Assembly (NCBI GenBank): GCA_003599135.1
Contig: QZIV01000011.1
Location: 1 to 46,236, forward strand
Length of the DNA: 46,236 nucleotides
From: Candidatus Parcubacteria bacterium
GTDB taxonomy: Bacteria; Patescibacteriota; Minisyncoccia; UBA6257; 2-01-FULL-56-20
Direction: 5' to 3'
The position numbers and the translations under genes are program-made. The notes below the pieces were generated by a model. The model saw only the letters and a program-made list of their open reading frames with translations, did not search any database and had not been told where the DNA came from. Numbering within the stretch: position 1 is the first letter of the stretch; each line of letters opens with the position of its first letter. Positions 7,815-46,236 of this stretch are shown here, in pieces.

Positions 7815-7850
7815 TATTAGGACACTACGGGCAATCGAGGAGGCAGAAAA

Positions 7851-8006
7851 ATGAAAATCATAACCGTATTCCTTGAAGCCTCATGCCCCGTTTGTGGCGG
7901 TTATAACACCTGTGCCTATGGCGGATCATCAAAGCGGCTCTGTCTAACGTGCGACGTAGTATTTGAGATTGAGTGCAAAGAGGTTATCAGTGAACCATTA
8001 TCGTGA
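7851..8006 (+). CDS. 51-aa Zn-ribbon protein (not in ORF track)
   Basis: GAGGAGG RBS; MKIITVFLEASCPVCGGYNTCAYGGSSKRLCLTCDVVFEIECKEVISEPLS. Confidence 0.7.
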   Translation: MKIITVFLEASCPVCGGYNTCAYGGSSKRLCLTCDVVFEIECKEVISEPLS

Positions 8007-10236
8007 CTTCCTTGAAGGCAAAAAGACCTTGTGGGGCGCATACGGCAAGCCCGTTTCGCGTGGCGATATTCATGAGAAGCTATTTCCATTTCAGCGGGAT
8101 TTAACTTATTGGGCGGCTCGCAAGGGCAAAAGTGCGATATTCGCTGACTGCGGACTCGGAAAAACATTCATGCAGTTGGAATGGGCCCGATTGCTAGATG
8201 AAAGAACGCTGATAATTGCGCCGCTGTCGGTTGCACGCCAAACAGTACGGGAGGCGGAAAAGCTCGGGCTGACCGTGAAATATATCCGGGATTGTTCGTC
8301 TCTAGAAAAACTGAATATCACAAATTATGAAATGCTCGATCACATTAACCCCGCTTTGTTCGGGGCCGTTGTGCTCGATGAATCAAGTATCCTAAAATCA
8401 ATCGCCGGAAAGACCCGCGAAAAACTGATAGAGATGTTTCAACAAACCAATTTCAAGTTATGTTGCACGGCAACGCCCGCCCCGAATGACATTGCAGAGA
8501 TTGCGAACCATGCAGAGTTTTTGTCAGTTGCTACCCGCAATGAAATGCTCTCAACATTCTTTGTGCATGATGCCGAAGGGTGGAGATTGAAGCGACATGC
8601 GGTTGAGCCATTCTACCGCTGGCTTGCCTCGTGGAGCATGAATATAACAAAGCCCTCGGATTTTGGGTATGAGGATAACGGATTTATTTTGCCGCCATTA
8701 ACGGTTGCCCCCGTTTTCGTCCGTTCAAACTACAAGCCGCAGGATGAATTGTTCGCAACCGGGCTATCCGGCATTGCTGACCGCTGCAAGGTCCGGGGGG
8801 CATCAATCAGCGACCGGATAGAACAAACAAAGAAACTTCTTCATGCGCGATCAGGCCAGTGGGTTATTTGGTGCAACCTGAACAAAGAGGCCGATGTGCT
8901 AATTAAAGAGCTCGCTAATTGCCGCGAAATCAAGGGCGCGGATTCGCTGGAAATGAAGCTGCGGAATATCGAAGATTTTCAAGACGGTAAATATCGCATT
9001 CTTATAACAAAACCATCCATTTGCGGCTTTGGGCTGAACCTTCAGAACTGCGAAAACCAACTATTTTTTGGGCTTTCCGATTCATGGGAAAGTTATTACC
9101 AGTGTATCAGGCGATCGTGGCGATTTGGCCAGACAAAGCCAGTAAGCGTTCATATTGTTTTAACTGATATTGAGCGGGTGATATATGAGAATGTAATGGA
9201 AAAGGCGCAGGCGGCGGAAACGCTGACCAAGGGGCTTATTGAGAACATAGCAATATTTGAGAAAGAGGAAATCGGGGGCATCAATCTAGGCGATTCATGG
9301 AGGTATGAAATGCGCGACGTGAAGGGCGAAAATTATTATATCATGCTTGGTGATTCATGCGAGCGCATGAAAGAACTACCCGCTGAATCAATCCACCTTT
9401 CGGTATTCTCTCCCCCATTTGCAAGCCTCTATACCTACAGCAGCACAGAGCGCGATCTTGGGAACTGCAAGGATGAAGCGGAGTTTTTAAAACACTTCGA
9501 TTTTATCATTGAAGAGCTTTACCGGGTAACTATCCCTGGCCGAATTTGCGCCGTTCATGTTTTTGACATCCCGGCGATGCTGATAAGAGATAACTTTATC
9601 GGCCTGAAAGACTTCTCCGGGGATGTTATCCGCCAATTTATCAATCATGGCTGGATTTACGACGCGCGAATCCCAATAGACAAGAATCAGCAGGCGCAAT
9701 CCATCCGGACGCATTCAAAGGCGCTGACCATGACGCAACTTGAAAAAGATCGGTCATGGCTCCGGCCCGCACTTCCCGACTATATTCTTAAATTCCGCAA
9801 GCCCGGCGAAAATCCCGCTCCCGTCGTAAATGGTGGCGTGACGCGGGATCAATGGATTGAGTATGCCGCCCCTACATGGCCAGACCCGATAGCCGATCGA
9901 TGCGCCGAAATGGGCGCATTCCCAACGTGGTACGGTATCCGGGAAACCGATACCCTGCAGGGCTGGCGAACAAAGGCCGGGCACAGGAATACGGGCGGAA
10001 AAGACGAAAAGCACATTTGCCCGCTGCAACTTGAAACGATATCCCGCATTATTCGCCTCTGGTCAAACGAACATGAGCGCATATTTACCCCGTTCATGGG
10101 GATCGGGTCCGAGGTCTATCAGGCTATCAGCTTGAATCGCTATGGCATTGGAATAGAACTAAAGCCCGAGTATTTCGAGCTTGCGGTTGAATACCTGAGT
10201 GAATACGAAAGAGGTATGGAGTTATTTGCATCATAA
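7990..10236 (+). CDS. SNF2-like helicase fused to an N4-cytosine/N6-adenine DNA methyltransferase
   Basis: LFPFQ, FADCGLGKT (Walker A), VVLDESS, TATPAPN, GLNLQ, QCIRRSWRFGQ; C-terminal SVFSPPF (motif IV), HICPLQ, FTPFMGIGSE (motif I). Likely GTG start 7990. Confidence 0.9.
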   Translation: MNHYRDFLEGKKTLWGAYGKPVSRGDIHEKLFPFQRDLTYWAARKGKSAIFADCGLGKTFMQLEWARLLDERTLIIAPLSVARQTVREAEKLGLTVKYIRDCSSLEKLNITNYEMLDHINPALFGAVVLDESSILKSIAGKTREKLIEMFQQTNFKLCCTATPAPNDIAEIANHAEFLSVATRNEMLSTFFVHDAEGWRLKRHAVEPFYRWLASWSMNITKPSDFGYEDNGFILPPLTVAPVFVRSNYKPQDELFATGLSGIADRCKVRGASISDRIEQTKKLLHARSGQWVIWCNLNKEADVLIKELANCREIKGADSLEMKLRNIEDFQDGKYRILITKPSICGFGLNLQNCENQLFFGLSDSWESYYQCIRRSWRFGQTKPVSVHIVLTDIERVIYENVMEKAQAAETLTKGLIENIAIFEKEEIGGINLGDSWRYEMRDVKGENYYIMLGDSCERMKELPAESIHLSVFSPPFASLYTYSSTERDLGNCKDEAEFLKHFDFIIEELYRVTIPGRICAVHVFDIPAMLIRDNFIGLKDFSGDVIRQFINHGWIYDARIPIDKNQQAQSIRTHSKALTMTQLEKDRSWLRPALPDYILKFRKPGENPAPVVNGGVTRDQWIEYAAPTWPDPIADRCAEMGAFPTWYGIRETDTLQGWRTKAGHRNTGGKDEKHICPLQLETISRIIRLWSNEHERIFTPFMGIGSEVYQAISLNRYGIGIELKPEYFELAVEYLSEYERGMELFAS

Positions 10237-11551: not shown

Positions 11552-11889
11552 ATTTCAAAATGCCGAAACCCACACCAGGTTTCCGAATCACTGGCAAAAA
11601 GGGTTTTCATATGACCTTTGAAAATGGTTATACCGTGTCCATCCAGTTCGGGCCAGGAGATTATTGCGATAACTATGACATGGAAATCGGAGAGCAGGAT
11701 GAGGCCGCCGGAGCCAATGGCTCATCGAATGCCGAGTACGCCGTATGGGGGCAAGGGGGAGAGATGATTCAGTACGGCGACTGGGGGGATACGGTCAGCA
11801 ACCGCTCAACGCCAGCGCAGGTTCTTGAATTATTGAATTGGGCGGCGAATCAACCAGCAATGGGGAATCCTGATGCCCTCGCTCGATGA
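11548..11889 (+). CDS. Hypothetical phage protein
   Basis: GGAGG RBS; GFHMTFENGYTVSIQFGPGDYC segment. Confidence 0.7.
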   Translation: MNFKMPKPTPGFRITGKKGFHMTFENGYTVSIQFGPGDYCDNYDMEIGEQDEAAGANGSSNAEYAVWGQGGEMIQYGDWGDTVSNRSTPAQVLELLNWAANQPAMGNPDALAR

Positions 11890-12273
11890 CGCGGTAACTG
11901 CGTTCGCCCATGCGGATGCCGCATACAAGACAGCCAAACGCGAACCTGCTCCCCCACGTGCTCGGAGCACCGCGCAAGGGTAACGATCAACTTCAAGGTG
12001 GTTAAAAAAGGAGAGGGTGAAGAATGACAACAATACCATGGCAATTAGACTCGCCGGAAAAGACCGCGACCGAAAGCACAAAGTCTAAATCCGAAATTAA
12101 GGTGGGAAAAAGATAAATGATTGCTTGGTTTATCGGAGGGCAAGACCATGAATCGCAGTACCCGCCATTGCGGGCTATGAGACAGCACACGATGGAGTAT
12201 TTCTTTCACGCGGCCTCGTGGATGAGCGGGGCTGCGTGAGGGAAATAGGGTAGAGAAAAGGAGCGGGAAAACA

Positions 12274-13137
12274 ATGGAAGGTGAACTTATGGAAAACGGA
12301 AAGAGCATTGCACCGCAGAACATGCTCGAGACTGCTTTGAGCGCGGACTTTGACGCAACTAAGGCAATTGCTCAGGCGGAAAAGCGGGTAGCGTTCTTGA
12401 AGCAGATCGCCGTTGTCAGCCTGAAAATGACAACAGAGGAGGACTGGACAAACGAGGGCGGCAAGCCCTACCTGCAATCATCGGGGGCCGAAAAACTGAA
12501 ACCGTTGTGGGGCATCTACGTGAAACCGGGGACGGTACGCTTTGAACGAGAAGATGATGAAGGACATCCGGCATTCACGTGCACCGGGGTCATGGGTTCA
12601 ACAATCACCCATGAAGAATCTGAATTTGTCGGCGGCAGATCGGCAAAGGATACGTTCTTTTCCCATCAAGCGTCTTGTGACATTCTCGACGTGAAAAAGG
12701 CGGCATATTCGAACCTTGAAGTGAACGGGATCACCCGCCTCCTCGGATTGCGAAACCTCACATGGGACCAACTCAAAGCCGCCAATCTCAATATCGAGAA
12801 GATCGGCAAGGTGGAGCGCGACACTTCCGGGATGGAGAAAGAGGAGATCGACAAGGCGCGGCTAAAGCATTTCGGAGAGTGCCTCGACGCCCTTTGCGAG
12901 ACGCGGGAAAAGGCGATCGAAAAGTTGTATGAGATGACAACCTTCACCGGCCGTGACGGGAAGACGATCACCGGCATCAAGTCTCTGAAGGCAATCAAGA
13001 GCAACAAGCAACTCAACAAGCTCACCCATGACATTCACGAGGCCATGAAAAAGGCGGGCGTGACGATCCCGGAAATGCCGAAGGCTCCGGCGCCTGAAAA
13101 TAAGAATGGAGGCGGCAATGATCCCGGGAATAGTTGA
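12274..13137 (+). CDS. Putative single-strand annealing recombinase
   Basis: GKPYLQSSGAEKL and DVKKAAYSNL segments; directly upstream of an exonuclease, the usual annealase-exonuclease pairing. Confidence 0.6.
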   Translation: MEGELMENGKSIAPQNMLETALSADFDATKAIAQAEKRVAFLKQIAVVSLKMTTEEDWTNEGGKPYLQSSGAEKLKPLWGIYVKPGTVRFEREDDEGHPAFTCTGVMGSTITHEESEFVGGRSAKDTFFSHQASCDILDVKKAAYSNLEVNGITRLLGLRNLTWDQLKAANLNIEKIGKVERDTSGMEKEEIDKARLKHFGECLDALCETREKAIEKLYEMTTFTGRDGKTITGIKSLKAIKSNKQLNKLTHDIHEAMKKAGVTIPEMPKAPAPENKNGGGNDPGNS

Positions 13138-31818: not shown

Positions 31819-32523
31819 ATGGCAGACGTACACAGCAAATGGATTAATGGGCAGCTCGTCTTTTGGGACACCTACGAATACAGGTGGGTTGATGCAATCG
31901 GCCCGGATGTCGTCAAGTATTGCAACCACTTCGTCAATTTGCCGGTAGACGATACGACCGGCAATCCGACGGAATTCACGACAACGGAAACGGGAGTGAA
32001 TACGGTCGTTATTAGCACGACGGCGGGCGGACGGCTCCTGCTTACCACCGGCGCCACGGAAAACAACGGCATCAGTATGCAATTGACGGGCGAAGCGTTC
32101 AAGCTCGAATCGAACAAGCCGCTGTATTTCGGAACGAAATTGCAGGTGAACGATGCCGACCAGGTTGACTTATTTATCGGCCTCTGCATAACCGACACCG
32201 ATTTGGCGGGCGGCATGACCGACGGAGTCTATTTTGAATCGCTTGACGAAAGCGCGAGCATCTCATGCGTGACCGAAAAGGATTCAACCGAAACGCAGAC
32301 CGATTCCACCGGAACGCTTGTCGATGCCACTGACAAGACGCTCGAATTCTACTGGGACGGCAGCACATACATTCATTTCTACATCGACGGAACGCTTGTG
32401 GCGTCAAGTTCCACAAACATTCCAACCGATGAAGAGCTTACGCTCTCGATCGAATTGCTGACCGGCGAGGGTACGGCAAACACCTGCTCAATCGATTGGG
32501 TCCGCGTCATTCAGATCCGGTAA
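31819..32523 (+). CDS. Putative virion protein with beta-sandwich (lectin-like) domain
   Basis: Acidic, Thr-rich; TLEFYWDG..IHFYIDG and IDWVRVIQ segments; in the head module. Confidence 0.55.
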   Translation: MADVHSKWINGQLVFWDTYEYRWVDAIGPDVVKYCNHFVNLPVDDTTGNPTEFTTTETGVNTVVISTTAGGRLLLTTGATENNGISMQLTGEAFKLESNKPLYFGTKLQVNDADQVDLFIGLCITDTDLAGGMTDGVYFESLDESASISCVTEKDSTETQTDSTGTLVDATDKTLEFYWDGSTYIHFYIDGTLVASSSTNIPTDEELTLSIELLTGEGTANTCSIDWVRVIQIR

Positions 32524-32533
32524 GGGGGTTGCA

Positions 32534-32950
32534 ATGAGAAGATACCTGATTGCGCTAGTGCTCGTGCTTCTCTTTGCAGGGGCGGCATGGGCAACGAGCC
32601 TCAACTTTTCGAGCAGCCCGAACCTGACGGGGCTTACTTACTGGGTTGAGCGTGATAACGTCGGCGATGCCTCAACCGCGCAAACGATCAAAGCCGCTCC
32701 TGGCGCGGGCTACAGGCTGACGGTAACGCGGGTAATAATCAGTTGCGTAACCGCATGTGCCATTTACTTGAAAGACGAAGACGGCACGGTAATAGCCGGC
32801 GGTTACGAATTCACTACGGGCGGCCCGGGAACAATAGACCTCAATTTCTACCGATACCCGCGATATTTGGCCGACAACAAGGCGCTGACGTATGAGGCAA
32901 CCGCAGAGGGAAACGTGACGGTTGAGGTTGAGGGGTTCACAAGCAACTAA
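32534..32950 (+). CDS. Head-module protein with Sec signal peptide
   Basis: MRRYLIALVLVLLFAGAAWA then TSLNF; beta-rich mature domain. Confidence 0.7.
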   Translation: MRRYLIALVLVLLFAGAAWATSLNFSSSPNLTGLTYWVERDNVGDASTAQTIKAAPGAGYRLTVTRVIISCVTACAIYLKDEDGTVIAGGYEFTTGGPGTIDLNFYRYPRYLADNKALTYEATAEGNVTVEVEGFTSN

Positions 32951-43480: not shown

Positions 43481-43861
43481 ATGTCCGATACCGCGCTTTT
43501 CGCATTCAATAAAAAAGATTTTTACATATTGGGGCGTGTGCGAGAGCGGCAGGCGCTGGCCGCCGGCACGGTTGACGATCTCTCGTATGACGATACAACG
43601 GGCCGGATTAAATTCTGCTTACTCGATCTTACGTGTGTGGCTGAGATTGACGAATCCGGGAATCTCTATATCCCGGGGCGAGTGCGGGAAAGAGAGGTAT
43701 TCGCAAACAGGAATTCGACCGACGGCATCCGGGCGGAGGCATCGGCGGTTGTGCTGAATATCGGGATTACATCGGTTGTCGAATTTACCGTTACCGCCAT
43801 GAGAATTAAAGGGCGGCTGTATGAGCACACGCTCGGGGCGGCATTGCTCGCGGGCGTGTGA
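43481..43861 (+). CDS. Tail-region protein with three short internal repeats
   Basis: YILGRVRER, YIPGRVRER, RIKGRLYEH. Confidence 0.6.
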   Translation: MSDTALFAFNKKDFYILGRVRERQALAAGTVDDLSYDDTTGRIKFCLLDLTCVAEIDESGNLYIPGRVREREVFANRNSTDGIRAEASAVVLNIGITSVVEFTVTAMRIKGRLYEHTLGAALLAGV

Positions 43862-43863
43862 GA

Positions 43864-44027
43864 AGTCCAAAGTCCAAAGGCTAAGGTCCAAGGTTGCGGG
43901 CCGTGCCCGTGAAGAGGAGGAAAAGCCGTGAAAATGAATCCGTGGTCAAAAATCTTCGTGTTTTTCTGTCTTGGTCTTTTCGTTTTGGTCTCCCTGACCT
44001 TGGACCTTAGACGTTGGACCTTGGACC
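43864..44027. repeat. Inverted pair of heptamer (GGTCCAA) arrays flanking the fibre RBS and start
   Basis: AGTCCAAAGTCCAAAGGCTAAGGTCCAAGG (43864-43893) versus CCTTGGACCTTAGACGTTGGACCTTGGACC (43998-44027): 26/30 reverse-complementary. Confidence 0.85.
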
Positions 44028-46236
44028 AAATTTCCGCATGGGCTTTGGGCTACAGCCCTATCACCGCCGTGGCCGTTGGCGAAGGTGACGTGGTCATATG
44101 GGACTCTTCGACTGCCTATCAGGTGACCACGACCACCACGCAAGGCAGTCAGCTTGTGGCCGGCGTGTGCGATGAGGCGGCCTCACTCGGGCAGCCCGCG
44201 CCAATCACTTCCAGCGGCCCATGCGTCAAAGTGGCGGTTACGGGCAGCGTCTCGATCGGCGATTACCTGATTACGAGTACGACGGCGGGCAAGGCGGTTG
44301 CGTCGGCCACGCTCGTTAACGGAGTATTTGGCCGGGCGATCACTGAGGATGGTACGCCGTCAGCCGGCTTCTGCTATGCGGACGTTGATGTCGGATTACA
44401 GGACGGTGCGGGTACTCCCAGCGCCGGAACAATTACAGAATCGATGCTCGATATCACGAACGCGGCTGTAGACGAATATACGCTCACCTACGAAACAACC
44501 GACGATGATCTTGAATGGCACGCGCCTTCCGAATGGATAAGCGTGGATGATCCTCTTGTGTGGCGCGGCGGGTTTCTCCTCGATATTCTGGCCGATGGGA
44601 TCAATGACCTCCATATCGATTGGGGGACCGACGCGGACCAGGTTAGCCAGGATGATGTTGTCGACGGCACGTCTTACGAGCGCGTGGCGGCAAATCAGCT
44701 TTCCAGCGGCATCTATATTGACGCCACGACCGCGGTTAAAGGTATTGCCTCGTTTGTGAGCTCATTTTTCTCCGTCTCTTCCGGTGCGGTATCCATTGCG
44801 AATGATGCAATCACCGAAGCACTCCTGAAGGCCGTCAATGCCGCTTCGGATGAATACTGCTTTACCTATGAGAGCACGACGGGTGACTTTGAATGGGAAG
44901 CGCCTTCCGACCTGTTCACCGCAGGCGCGTCACTCGATTGGGCTGGCGGGTTCGTTCTCGAAGTTGCGGCGGACGGCGTGAACGACCTGCATGTTGATTG
45001 GGGGACCGGAACGAATCAGGTATCAGCGGCGGACGTGCCTTTTGCTGACGGCGACAGCAACTATACGGCTACCACGGTTGAGGCTGCATTTGCCGAACTC
45101 GATGACACAAACCCGTCAGGCGTGAATGCCGCAGACGCAAAGGTTGACTGGACTCAATTGGGTTCTGTCCCCGCCGGATTCGCTGACGGTACGGATGATA
45201 CAGGGGGCGGCGGCGATATTACAGACGTGTTTGATTGTGCCACCGGCGATTGCGCATCTATCGCCATGACGGACGGTGATCTTCTCAATGCCTCTGCCGT
45301 CAATGGTTCGAGCACGACTGAAGGCATTATCATTCCGCAGTCTACCGACTGTTCGGCGGCAACGGCTGAAGGTCAGCTTTGCTGGGATACCGACAACACC
45401 ACGCTCTATATCGGCAACGACGGCGGTACGTCTCAGATAGGCGCGGCTGGCGGCGCTGGCGATATCTCAGACGTTTACAACTGTGCATCGGGTGACTGTG
45501 CGGCTATAGCCATGGCCGACGGGGACCTGCTGAATGGTTCGGCTGTCAACTGCTCAGGTACGGGCGAGGGCATCATATTGCCGCAGGCGGCTGATTGCGC
45601 CGCTGCTACCGCAGAGGGTCAGATATGCTGGGACACTGACGATCGGCTGTATGTGGGAACAGGCGCGGCTACGGTGGGGATGCTGAAAGCGACGGATACG
45701 GGCGGGGCAATCGACTTCGGCGGCTCTACCAGTTTAGAGATTCCCAATGGCACAGATCCACAGCCTAATGCTACCGGCGAAATAGCACTTGATACCGACC
45801 TTGCGGATTGGTCAATCGACCGGGCGCTTATCGTCTATGCCCTTGACGCCACAAATCAAATGTACGCTATCGCCGTTCATGAGGATGAATTTGCAAGCCT
45901 GGCCGATGACTTCATAGTCAAATACGATGCCGCAACGGATGAATTTAAACTGGAGGAAGATACGGGCGGAAGTGGCGGATTTGTAGATCGAGGCGATCCA
46001 GCGGCCAATGATTACACACAAGCCACATTGACGAGTGACAGCACATATCATGACCTTGATTTGAGCGCAATCGTGCCAGCAGGTGCAACCGGGGTGCTTC
46101 TCAAAATCATGATCAAAGATGCTACCGTAGGGGCGGCTTTCACAGTTAGAAAGAATGGCAACACCAACGCGTACGCAACCTCATCAGTTCGCACACAGGT
46201 TGCAAATGTTTATGTTGAAGGCTGCGTAACAATCCC
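43934..46236 (+). CDS. Approximately 795-aa fibre protein with signal peptide, cement-like N-domain and internal repeats (continues to 184; missing from ORF track)
   Basis: GAGGAGG RBS, GTG 43928 or ATG 43934; my manual translation is open to the window end and through the junction to TAA 184; acidic, Gly/Thr/Ala-rich; two pairs of internal repeats. Confidence 0.85.
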   Translation, partial: MNPWSKIFVFFCLGLFVLVSLTLDLRRWTLDQISAWALGYSPITAVAVGEGDVVIWDSSTAYQVTTTTTQGSQLVAGVCDEAASLGQPAPITSSGPCVKVAVTGSVSIGDYLITSTTAGKAVASATLVNGVFGRAITEDGTPSAGFCYADVDVGLQDGAGTPSAGTITESMLDITNAAVDEYTLTYETTDDDLEWHAPSEWISVDDPLVWRGGFLLDILADGINDLHIDWGTDADQVSQDDVVDGTSYERVAANQLSSGIYIDATTAVKGIASFVSSFFSVSSGAVSIANDAITEALLKAVNAASDEYCFTYESTTGDFEWEAPSDLFTAGASLDWAGGFVLEVAADGVNDLHVDWGTGTNQVSAADVPFADGDSNYTATTVEAAFAELDDTNPSGVNAADAKVDWTQLGSVPAGFADGTDDTGGGGDITDVFDCATGDCASIAMTDGDLLNASAVNGSSTTEGIIIPQSTDCSAATAEGQLCWDTDNTTLYIGNDGGTSQIGAAGGAGDISDVYNCASGDCAAIAMADGDLLNGSAVNCSGTGEGIILPQAADCAAATAEGQICWDTDDRLYVGTGAATVGMLKATDTGGAIDFGGSTSLEIPNGTDPQPNATGEIALDTDLADWSIDRALIVYALDATNQMYAIAVHEDEFASLADDFIVKYDAATDEFKLEEDTGGSGGFVDRGDPAANDYTQATLTSDSTYHDLDLSAIVPAGATGVLLKIMIKDATVGAAFTVRKNGNTNAYATSSVRTQVANVYVEGCVTI
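46138..46236. repeat. Terminal overlap identical to 1-99
   Basis: Exact 99-bp duplication of the window start. Confidence 0.97.

Follow-up and report, generated by a model that had tools for sequence, protein, structure and literature searches.

Does a phage fibre encoded at the far end of a late operon leave the cytoplasm before it meets the particle? The question is raised by the last gene of the late block on contig QZIV01000011.1, of which the whole stretch of 46,236 nucleotides was analysed (in the following, the window). The window is a contig of a siphovirus-like, uncultured phage. Its bases 1–99 are identical to bases 46138–46236, and from this exact repeat it follows that the contig is circular, with a phage genome size of 46,137 bp. 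The open reading frame (ORF) in question closes the tail module and encodes a fibre protein of 797 aa with a hydrophobic N-terminus resembling a Sec signal, while structural proteins of tailed phages normally lack such signals. The best reading of this ORF is a modular fibre of the late structural operon that would be made as a secretory precursor. Export of the fibre, as proposed by an original prediction made from the letters of the window, is well supported by comparison with homologous proteins, whereas cleavage of the atypical signal of the window protein is uncertain.

Signal-like N-termini in the window protein and its homologues

The features of the fibre gene bearing on its start and its signal are the following.

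43914–43920, +, ribosome-binding site (RBS) GAGGAGG, with a spacing of 7 nt to GTG 43928 and of 13 nt to ATG 43934
43928–46236, +, fibre ORF, residues 1–769 of 797, running off the window end owing to the circular contig
100–184, +, end of the fibre ORF, last 28 residues (PCDTNRV...GWFL), stop codon at 182–184
43928–43951, +, signal n-region, residues 1–8 (M/V-KMNPWSK)
43952–44002, +, hydrophobic core, residues 9–25, IFVFFCLGLFVLVSLTL
44003–44044, +, charged spacer and A-W-A, residues 26–39, DLRRWTLDQISAWA

Up to position 46236, 769 aa of the product are encoded, and the full length of 797 aa is reached by the in-frame continuation at 2–184. As GAGGAGG is found 7 nt before the GTG at 43928, the fibre probably starts there, two codons before the ATG at 43934 (MKMNPWSK...), from which the protein had been read in the original prediction and which is probably not the start. 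Whichever of the two codons is used, the hydrophobic segment is included. In-frame GTG and TTG codons are present further downstream, but only the upstream start has an RBS.

The n-region has a net charge of +2, resulting from K2 and K8. It is followed by an h-region of 17 residues, where about 7–15 are typical of Sec signals; this length is near the upper limit for a signal, yet low for a membrane anchor. The c-region comprises 14 residues (DLRRWTLDQIS, then A-W-A) as against a typical 3–7, and 5 of the 11 residues between core and A-W-A are charged. A-W-A corresponds to residues 37–39 and precedes LGYSP, so that the predicted signal-peptidase site is located after A39; the motif ends 13 residues before G53 of the GDVV motif of the adjoining domain. 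Core, A-W-A and LGYSP thus agree with the original prediction, in which the 14-residue charged spacer had been missed. A spacer resembling that of the window protein is also found in P0040. When modelled with AlphaFold2 from an alignment of 46 sequences, residues 5–38 form one continuous helix.

Homologous proteins were compared in two sets. The search with the full-length protein retrieved 31 proteins, and 35 sequences, query included, were then compared, 13 of which have signal-like N-termini and 22 are signal-less. The search with the N-domain against 1.84 billion representatives resulted in 296 proteins at E ≤ 1e-3, 36 of them at E ≤ 1e-10, and N-termini were counted in the best 150 of these 296 relatives plus five found earlier, provided that the GDVV motif could be located. 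A hydrophobic N-terminus was found in 31 N-domain homologues, of which 27 show a strict A-x-A ending 10–17 residues before GDVV and 30 have a positive n-region. In contrast, A-x-A at that position is present in only 4 of 75 homologues with a non-hydrophobic extension and in none of 18 internal copies of the domain; 7 homologues start directly at the domain. At the protein level, the segment is retained even where the identity of homologues is as low as about 35%. Textbook short signals are common among the homologues, with short classical ones in P0069, P0062 and P0047 (short c-regions in P0069 and P0047), and in SGPCDLAN-type relatives the core comprises up to 24 uncharged residues. Also conserved is a spacer of 12–16 residues between core and A-x-A. 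As judged from these sequences, the hydrophobic N-terminus with a fixed A-x-A is a family trait across a diverged subfamily. Within the window, a hydrophobic segment that begins in the first 40 residues is seen in only 4 of 58 ORFs, namely the fibre, a 138-aa ORF in the head module, the convergent SGNH-like ORF and a small membrane protein. This low number and the recurrence in homologues indicate that the hydrophobic N-terminus of the fibre is not due to chance.

Among the 7 homologues starting directly at the domain, the signal-less P0049, P0051, P0053, P0054 and P0059 have M and 14 further residues ahead of GDVV, which corresponds to the predicted mature end. For P0054, encoded in locus L028, the frame runs into a stop two codons further upstream and an RBS precedes the ATG; moreover, its gene directly follows a homologue of the 373-aa tail-tip gene of the window (37% identity, E 4e-68). 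From the closed frame, the RBS and this position it can be concluded that the same gene exists at the same place with and without a signal. Loci related to P0054 were not found among viral contigs. In a FastTree phylogeny of 137 domain segments, calculated from 105 columns with arm and signal columns excluded and leaving out P0002 (near-identical to the window protein), P0041 (uncertain start) and P0055 (partial), the group of the window protein comprises 29 rows, 24 signal-bearing and 5 signal-less (node support 87, not starred). On this tree, the signal state has to change 8 times, whereas in 300 shuffles the mean was 27.3 and the lowest value 22. Retention of the signal among homologues, which the original prediction had named as a check, is thus borne out by this group as well as by the A-x-A counts given above.

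The start region of the fibre gene additionally carries a 30-nt inverted repeat with arms at 43865–43894 and 43997–44026 (90% complementary) that contain GGTCCAA(A/G)G units. The arms flank the RBS, both start codons and the codons of the hydrophobic core, and the right arm codes for the unusual TLDLRRWTLD spacer. RNA of positions 43855–44040 has a folding energy of –77.1 kcal/mol, versus –50.0 ± 4.3 kcal/mol in shuffles (z –6.3, 0/200). Two further GGTCCAA(A/G)G units are also located at 1093–1108, just upstream of the convergent SGNH-like gene. A comparable inverted repeat was found in none of 7 related loci. Candidate roles are translational control or a regulator binding site. An invertible DNA switch at the fibre start was considered and rejected as the main reading, as inversion in silico leaves no RBS-bearing start and the repeat is absent from the 7 related loci; a match to a recombinase family was not obtained among the window ORFs scanned, small ORFs being scanned in part.

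Anchor domain, repeats and cysteine pairs

Behind the signal region, the fibre is composed of the following parts.

44045–44407, +, N-terminal arm (residues 40–52) and cement-like domain of beta-tulip type (to about residue 160), from AlphaFold2 model and Foldseek
44432–44674, +, repeat A copy 1, residues 169–249
44810–45058, +, repeat A copy 2, residues 295–377
45203–45448, +, repeat B copy 1, residues 426–507, with C-x4-C at 437/442 and C-x9-C-WDTD at 475/485
45449–45715, +, repeat B copy 2, residues 508–596, with C-x4-C at 519/524, C-x9-C-WDTD at 557/567 and an extra Cys at 542
45974–46236, continuing at 100–181, +, C-terminal distal domain, residues ~683–797, with C-x4-C at 766/771

With the alignment of 46 sequences, residues ~41–160 were modelled by AlphaFold2 at a predicted local distance difference test (pLDDT) score of 92–98; from the single sequence of residues 1–211, only the N-terminal helix was obtained confidently (mean pLDDT 40). 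Foldseek comparison with the PDB resulted in 9 chains at E ≤ 1e-3, all of them capsid decoration or head-fibre-base chains, including the decoration protein of Haloferax tailed virus 1 (HFTV1; 8qsy, 1.2e-5), the cement protein of cyanophage Pam3 (8hdt_G, 4.4e-5) and the head-fibre base of phi29 (6qyy_B, 4.6e-5). The head-fibre chains of the phi29 prohead (6qvk) also matched, and weaker E-values were obtained for capsid entries of TW1 (stabiliser, 5wk1_K), T1 and XM1. In BFVD, 72 matches at E ≤ 1e-3 were found, one of them a DUF2190-named protein. At the sequence level, the whole fibre protein gave nothing significant in Pfam or PHROGs, and the PDB sequence search was empty at E ≤ 1. PF09956 (Phage_cement_2, formerly DUF2190) does not match the window protein even at E ≤ 1; among the 46 aligned relatives, however, 12 are matched at E ≤ 0.01, the best one at 6.5e-7. 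Consequently, the resemblance to DUF2190 or capsid-cement domains noted in the original prediction holds by fold and distant homology. The window protein itself is not filed under PF09956 or PF11133, since the tests with both hidden Markov models (HMM) failed.

In passages of PMC7602432, beta-tulip decoration proteins are described as trimers that bind the capsid mainly via an N-terminal arm, phi29 gp8.5 as such a base domain with a spike, thought to aid host adhesion, and Dec of phage L as binding to mature capsids in vitro. By analogy, the 13 residues between A-W-A and GDVV would represent an N-terminal arm of the capsid-binding type, and the fibre is probably trimeric. The window protein shares with gp8.5 the combination of an N-terminal beta-tulip-type base and an elongated fibre (6qyy, template modelling score of 0.68–0.71 on the target). 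It differs from gp8.5 in not matching PF11133 (only a low-score Atlas lead of 0.82), in having beta-rich repeats with cysteine pairs where the gp8.5 spike is an alpha-helical supercoil, and in being encoded after the tail-tip genes. Moreover, gp8.5 is not known to carry a signal peptide. The PF09956 cement proteins of TW1, Pam3 and HFTV1 likewise show the same fold, but they are stand-alone, cytoplasmic proteins of ~110–170 aa, whereas the domain of the window protein stays below the family HMM, is preceded by a predicted export signal and would anchor a fibre of 797 aa.

A stand-alone cement gene adjoining the capsid gene was not recognised in the window, the 160-aa and 234-aa ORFs giving an hhalign probability of <1% against the N-domain profile. 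The 234-aa ORF after the capsid gene (31819–32523, +) matches an SO2946-like C-terminal domain (E 7.8e-9) and weakly Laminin_G_3, and may encode a lectin-like head decoration. Besides fibres, the cement-like domain occurs as 4–8 matched stretches in the giant proteins P0036, P0048, P0079 and P0131 (2,353–4,884 aa), and some of these giant domain-repeating proteins have signal-like N-termini.

Between the copies of each repeat of the fibre, 45 of 81 aligned residues are identical for repeat A and 57 of 84 for repeat B. The region of repeat A is common to the signal-less fibre proteins P0006–P0014. Copy 1 of repeat B shows a weak match to Mtd_N (E = 0.12, below cut-off), and a possible third half copy of the repeat, free of cysteines, does not reach significance, since 15 of 200 shuffles attain an equally good score. 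The C-x4-C and C-x9-C pairs that had originally been noticed in the repeats are found in both copies of repeat B at the positions listed, and a further C-x4-C is present in the distal domain. Over 87 residues, the C-terminal domain shows 50.6% identity to the end of the fibre encoded in locus L027, and P0045 has an end (...GWFY) similar to that of the window protein. Among the relatives, the N-domain is conserved, whereas C-terminal parts differ; distal modules include Beta_helix (right-handed beta-helix, in 6 of 46) as well as Laminin_G_3 and CBM_4_9. A conserved N-domain joined to variable distal modules, as found here, is the usual pattern of receptor-binding proteins. In being encoded by the last tail-module gene and in having repeats and swappable distal modules, the window protein resembles siphovirus side fibres and receptor-binding proteins, from which it is distinguished by the export signal, the cysteine-pair modules and the capsid-cement-type anchor. 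The term fibre is right as a description of the architecture; as the predicted anchor domain resembles a capsid-binding module, either a head or a tail fibre may be meant. In tblastn against 50,697 GenBank phage records, neither the whole protein nor residues 1–167 gave a match.

In the full-length set, Cx9C-WD occurs in 8 and Cx4C in 10 of the 13 signal-like proteins, which contain 5–47 cysteines, compared to 0/22 for both motifs in the signal-less proteins (0–5 cysteines). The Cx4C/Cx9C module is thus confined to signal-bearing relatives; as judged from the N-domain set, cysteine richness in general does not go with the signal. From these motifs, disulfides may be expected in the fibre.

Two further sequences touch the distal part of the fibre. 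P0002 is 99% identical to the window protein over residues 3–721 (4 differences), but its last 41 residues (720–760) diverge completely from residues 722–797 of the window protein; possible causes are misassembly of the 3.1-kb contig encoding P0002, a recombination junction or a frameshift. On the unrelated viral contig L004, an ORF at ~7840–8666 is fibre-like, with a signal-like start, MRKFYLQCALKSIYVFCILGLGSIAYA, and a C-x9-C-WDTD module; it comes after structural genes and lacks the cement-like domain.

Gene neighbourhood and host

Head genes encoded in the window are those for the small and large terminase subunits, portal, head protease and an HK97-type capsid protein. In addition, the window codes for a head-tail adaptor and neck proteins, for a tape measure protein of 707 aa, followed by five tail-tip genes without family names, and for replication and DNA-modification functions. 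The gene order before the fibre ORF is tape measure, 119-aa, 422-aa, 390-aa, 373-aa and 126-aa genes. Neither a sigma-70-like promoter nor a terminator-like site was found between the upstream gene and the fibre ORF, and there is no further fibre-like family match among the tail genes of the window.

In loci L005, L027, L024, L017, L015, L016 and L019, a signal-bearing gene comes right after homologues of the 119-aa, 422-aa and 373-aa genes, and L028 shows the same order with the signal-less form, amounting to 8 related loci. In the window as well as in L005, L016 and L027, the tail-tip genes come after a tape measure gene. In L015 and L017, they come after the head-tail adaptor, and neither a tail tube nor a tape measure gene is located between them. 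The latter two loci (L015 1–11631, L017 3283–12049) have the order portal, protease, capsid, adaptor, 119-aa homologue, a fused tail-tip protein of 1,102–1,103 aa and signal-bearing fibre, and L017 sits inside a 127-kb contig. They could represent relatives with short tails or else reduced elements.

Convergent to the fibre gene, a signal-bearing SGNH/GDSL-like hydrolase is encoded at 148–1083 (–), with a weak match to Lipase_GDSL_2 (E 7e-4, below cut-off). The same convergent arrangement is found in L027 at 11708–12403 (–), at 26% identity. Possibly, the hydrolase is an exported esterase with surface glycans as substrate. Between head genes and head-tail adaptor, the 138-aa ORF at 32534–32950 (+) starts with a textbook signal, MRRYLIALVLVLLFAGAAWA, followed by TS..., and belongs to no Pfam or PHROGs family; with this predicted signal, a second protein of the structural block would be exported.

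The bin to which the window has been assigned (G000) comprises 702,929 bp and is 92% complete, and Omp85/BamA was not found in it. The tetranucleotide correlation of the window with the rest of the bin is 0.735, compared to 0.94–0.99 for most contigs, with C18, C21 and C22 being outliers as well. A CRISPR-spacer-like link between window and bin was not found either, the search yielding only two 18-nt matches at chance level (E 0.39). The four genomes with the closest N-domain relatives among the matches listed have sizes of 2.6–4.7 Mb and all possess Omp85/BamA; one such BamA looks verrucomicrobial in Atlas, which is to be taken as a lead only. The large terminase is 46–48% identical to terminases of Pseudomonas, Synechococcus, Caulobacter and Moraxella phages. 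The placement of the window in the 0.7-Mb bin is therefore doubtful, and because of the tetranucleotide mismatch, the missing spacer link, the BamA-positive relatives and the terminase identities a diderm host is considered more probable than one represented by the small-genome bin.

Proposed export and assembly, and alternative explanations

We propose a fibre that is exported via Sec, oxidatively folded and joined to particles at lysis, with attachment site and cleavage being putative, and regard this scheme as plausible at a confidence slightly short of even. The precursor would pass the Sec translocon late in infection. Signal peptidase I would then cut after A39, or the helix would briefly tether the protein, and the N-terminal arm would be freed. 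In the periplasm of a diderm host, the cysteine-pair modules would be oxidised, and the fibres would be held in the envelope until lysis by holin and endolysin mixes the compartments, upon which the cement-type N-domain would dock them onto finished particles. Decoration proteins and side fibres can dock in this manner once assembly is complete. Concerning the docking site, the gene position would point to the tail tip and the fold to the capsid surface, both being about equally probable. The likely gain of export would be a disulfide-stabilised adhesin, and a further one might be that a glycan-binding or glycan-cutting fibre is kept from cytoplasmic precursors. As signal-bearing and signal-less forms exist at one locus, the role of the protein should be workable from either compartment, which argues for a virion component, fitting both forms better than an envelope-resident factor. 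Besides docking at lysis, the original prediction had offered display on the surface of the carrier cell. This fate is the weaker one, since close relatives are found in BamA-positive, that is, diderm genomes, and a Sec signal alone leads to the periplasm in a diderm.

A comparable route is known from pIII of filamentous phages, a receptor-binding virion protein with a Sec signal that folds with disulfides in the periplasm and is added to the particle at the envelope. However, it belongs to another virus realm, with assembly by extrusion without lysis, and shows no homology to the window protein. For tailed phages, full-text literature searches, whose coverage is incomplete and does not exclude a precedent, yielded no paper describing a tail or head fibre with a signal.

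Several observations weigh against the proposed export and docking. A charged c-region of 14 residues is atypical for signal peptidase I, and this length and charge would also be compatible with an uncleaved anchor. Resolution of the tree is poor, with 14 of 134 branches starred over its 105 columns, and accordingly it supports no fixed number of independent signal gains. Likewise, the contrast in cysteine motifs leans on the close block P0006–P0014 and hence on few independent comparisons, while in the N-domain set cysteine enrichment of the signal-bearing proteins is not significant (one-sided Mann-Whitney p = 0.058), their median of 0.77 Cys per 100 aa comparing with values of 0.48–0.81. 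The mature protein would hold 15 cysteines, an odd number leaving at least one of them unpaired. As the cement-like domain is also present in the giant proteins, the fold alone is no proof of virion binding. Finally, the bin genome is without BamA; if it did represent the true host and this host were monoderm, the periplasm step would be void.

Export would equally be expected of a non-virion envelope factor masking or remodelling the receptor glycan together with the convergent hydrolase, which could serve superinfection exclusion or shield released progeny from debris. The signal evidence from homologues is compatible with this explanation, as are the signal-bearing SGNH-like gene convergent in the window and likewise in L027, and the occurrence of the cement-like domain in giant proteins that do not look like virion components. 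Exported accessory genes at the ends of tail modules are known, with T5 Llp as an example. Both Llp and lambda Lom are small outer-membrane proteins or lipoproteins, however, located outside the particle and not fibre-like. For Lom, a signal-bearing gene adjoining tail genes is described in a passage of PMC12309495. Against an envelope factor, the fibre gene has late operon orientation with no promoter- or terminator-like site before it, is always found directly after tail-tip genes and has signal-less orthologues at the same position, whose cytoplasmic products would be unable to work in the envelope. Moreover, the N-domain is folded like a virion-binding module, and another candidate fibre is missing, no other fibre-like family match being found among the tail genes of the window. 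Hence, this explanation appears rather unlikely.

Less probable still is an uncleaved signal-anchor, by which the fibre would be tethered in the inner membrane with its body periplasmic or outside, being released with membrane fragments at lysis or working in the tethered state. The long core (17 residues here, up to 24 uncharged ones in SGPCDLAN-type relatives), the conserved spacer of 12–16 residues before A-x-A and the continuous helix modelled for residues 5–38 would suit an anchor. On the other hand, A-x-A is found at a fixed distance in 27 of 31 signal-bearing homologues, including the short classical signals of P0069, P0062 and P0047, and signal-less orthologues begin exactly at the A-x-A end. 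In addition, a tether would block the free N-terminal arm used by this fold for binding, as far as described in PMC7602432. An ordinary cytoplasmic tail fibre without any export role, due to a downstream start or to burial of the helix in a cytoplasmic assembly, might be assumed from the in-frame GTG and TTG codons and from the normal absence of signals in tailed-phage structural proteins. It is very improbable in view of the RBS at the upstream start only, the conservation of the segment down to ~35% identity with positive n-region (30/31) and A-x-A (27/31), and the textbook short signals in many homologues.

Beyond the window, the proposed secretory fibre may be representative of a widespread group of tailed phages of diderms finishing their particles outside the cytoplasm, in which a Sec-secreted, periplasm-folded fibre would be loaded at lysis onto capsid or tail tip via the cement-type domain, with repeated gain and loss of the signal; this generalisation is put forward as tentative. 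Tailed-phage assembly is treated as purely cytoplasmic. If the proposal is true, some phages would use the secretion and oxidative-folding machinery of the host for part of their particle, which would explain disulfide-rich modules in phage adhesins. Annotation would change as well, as structural-protein predictors and the calling of 'morons' both use signal peptides as a cue, and laboratory production of such fibres or depolymerases would need periplasmic expression. With related phages having the fibre with and without a signal, a natural contrast is available by which the question is directly testable.

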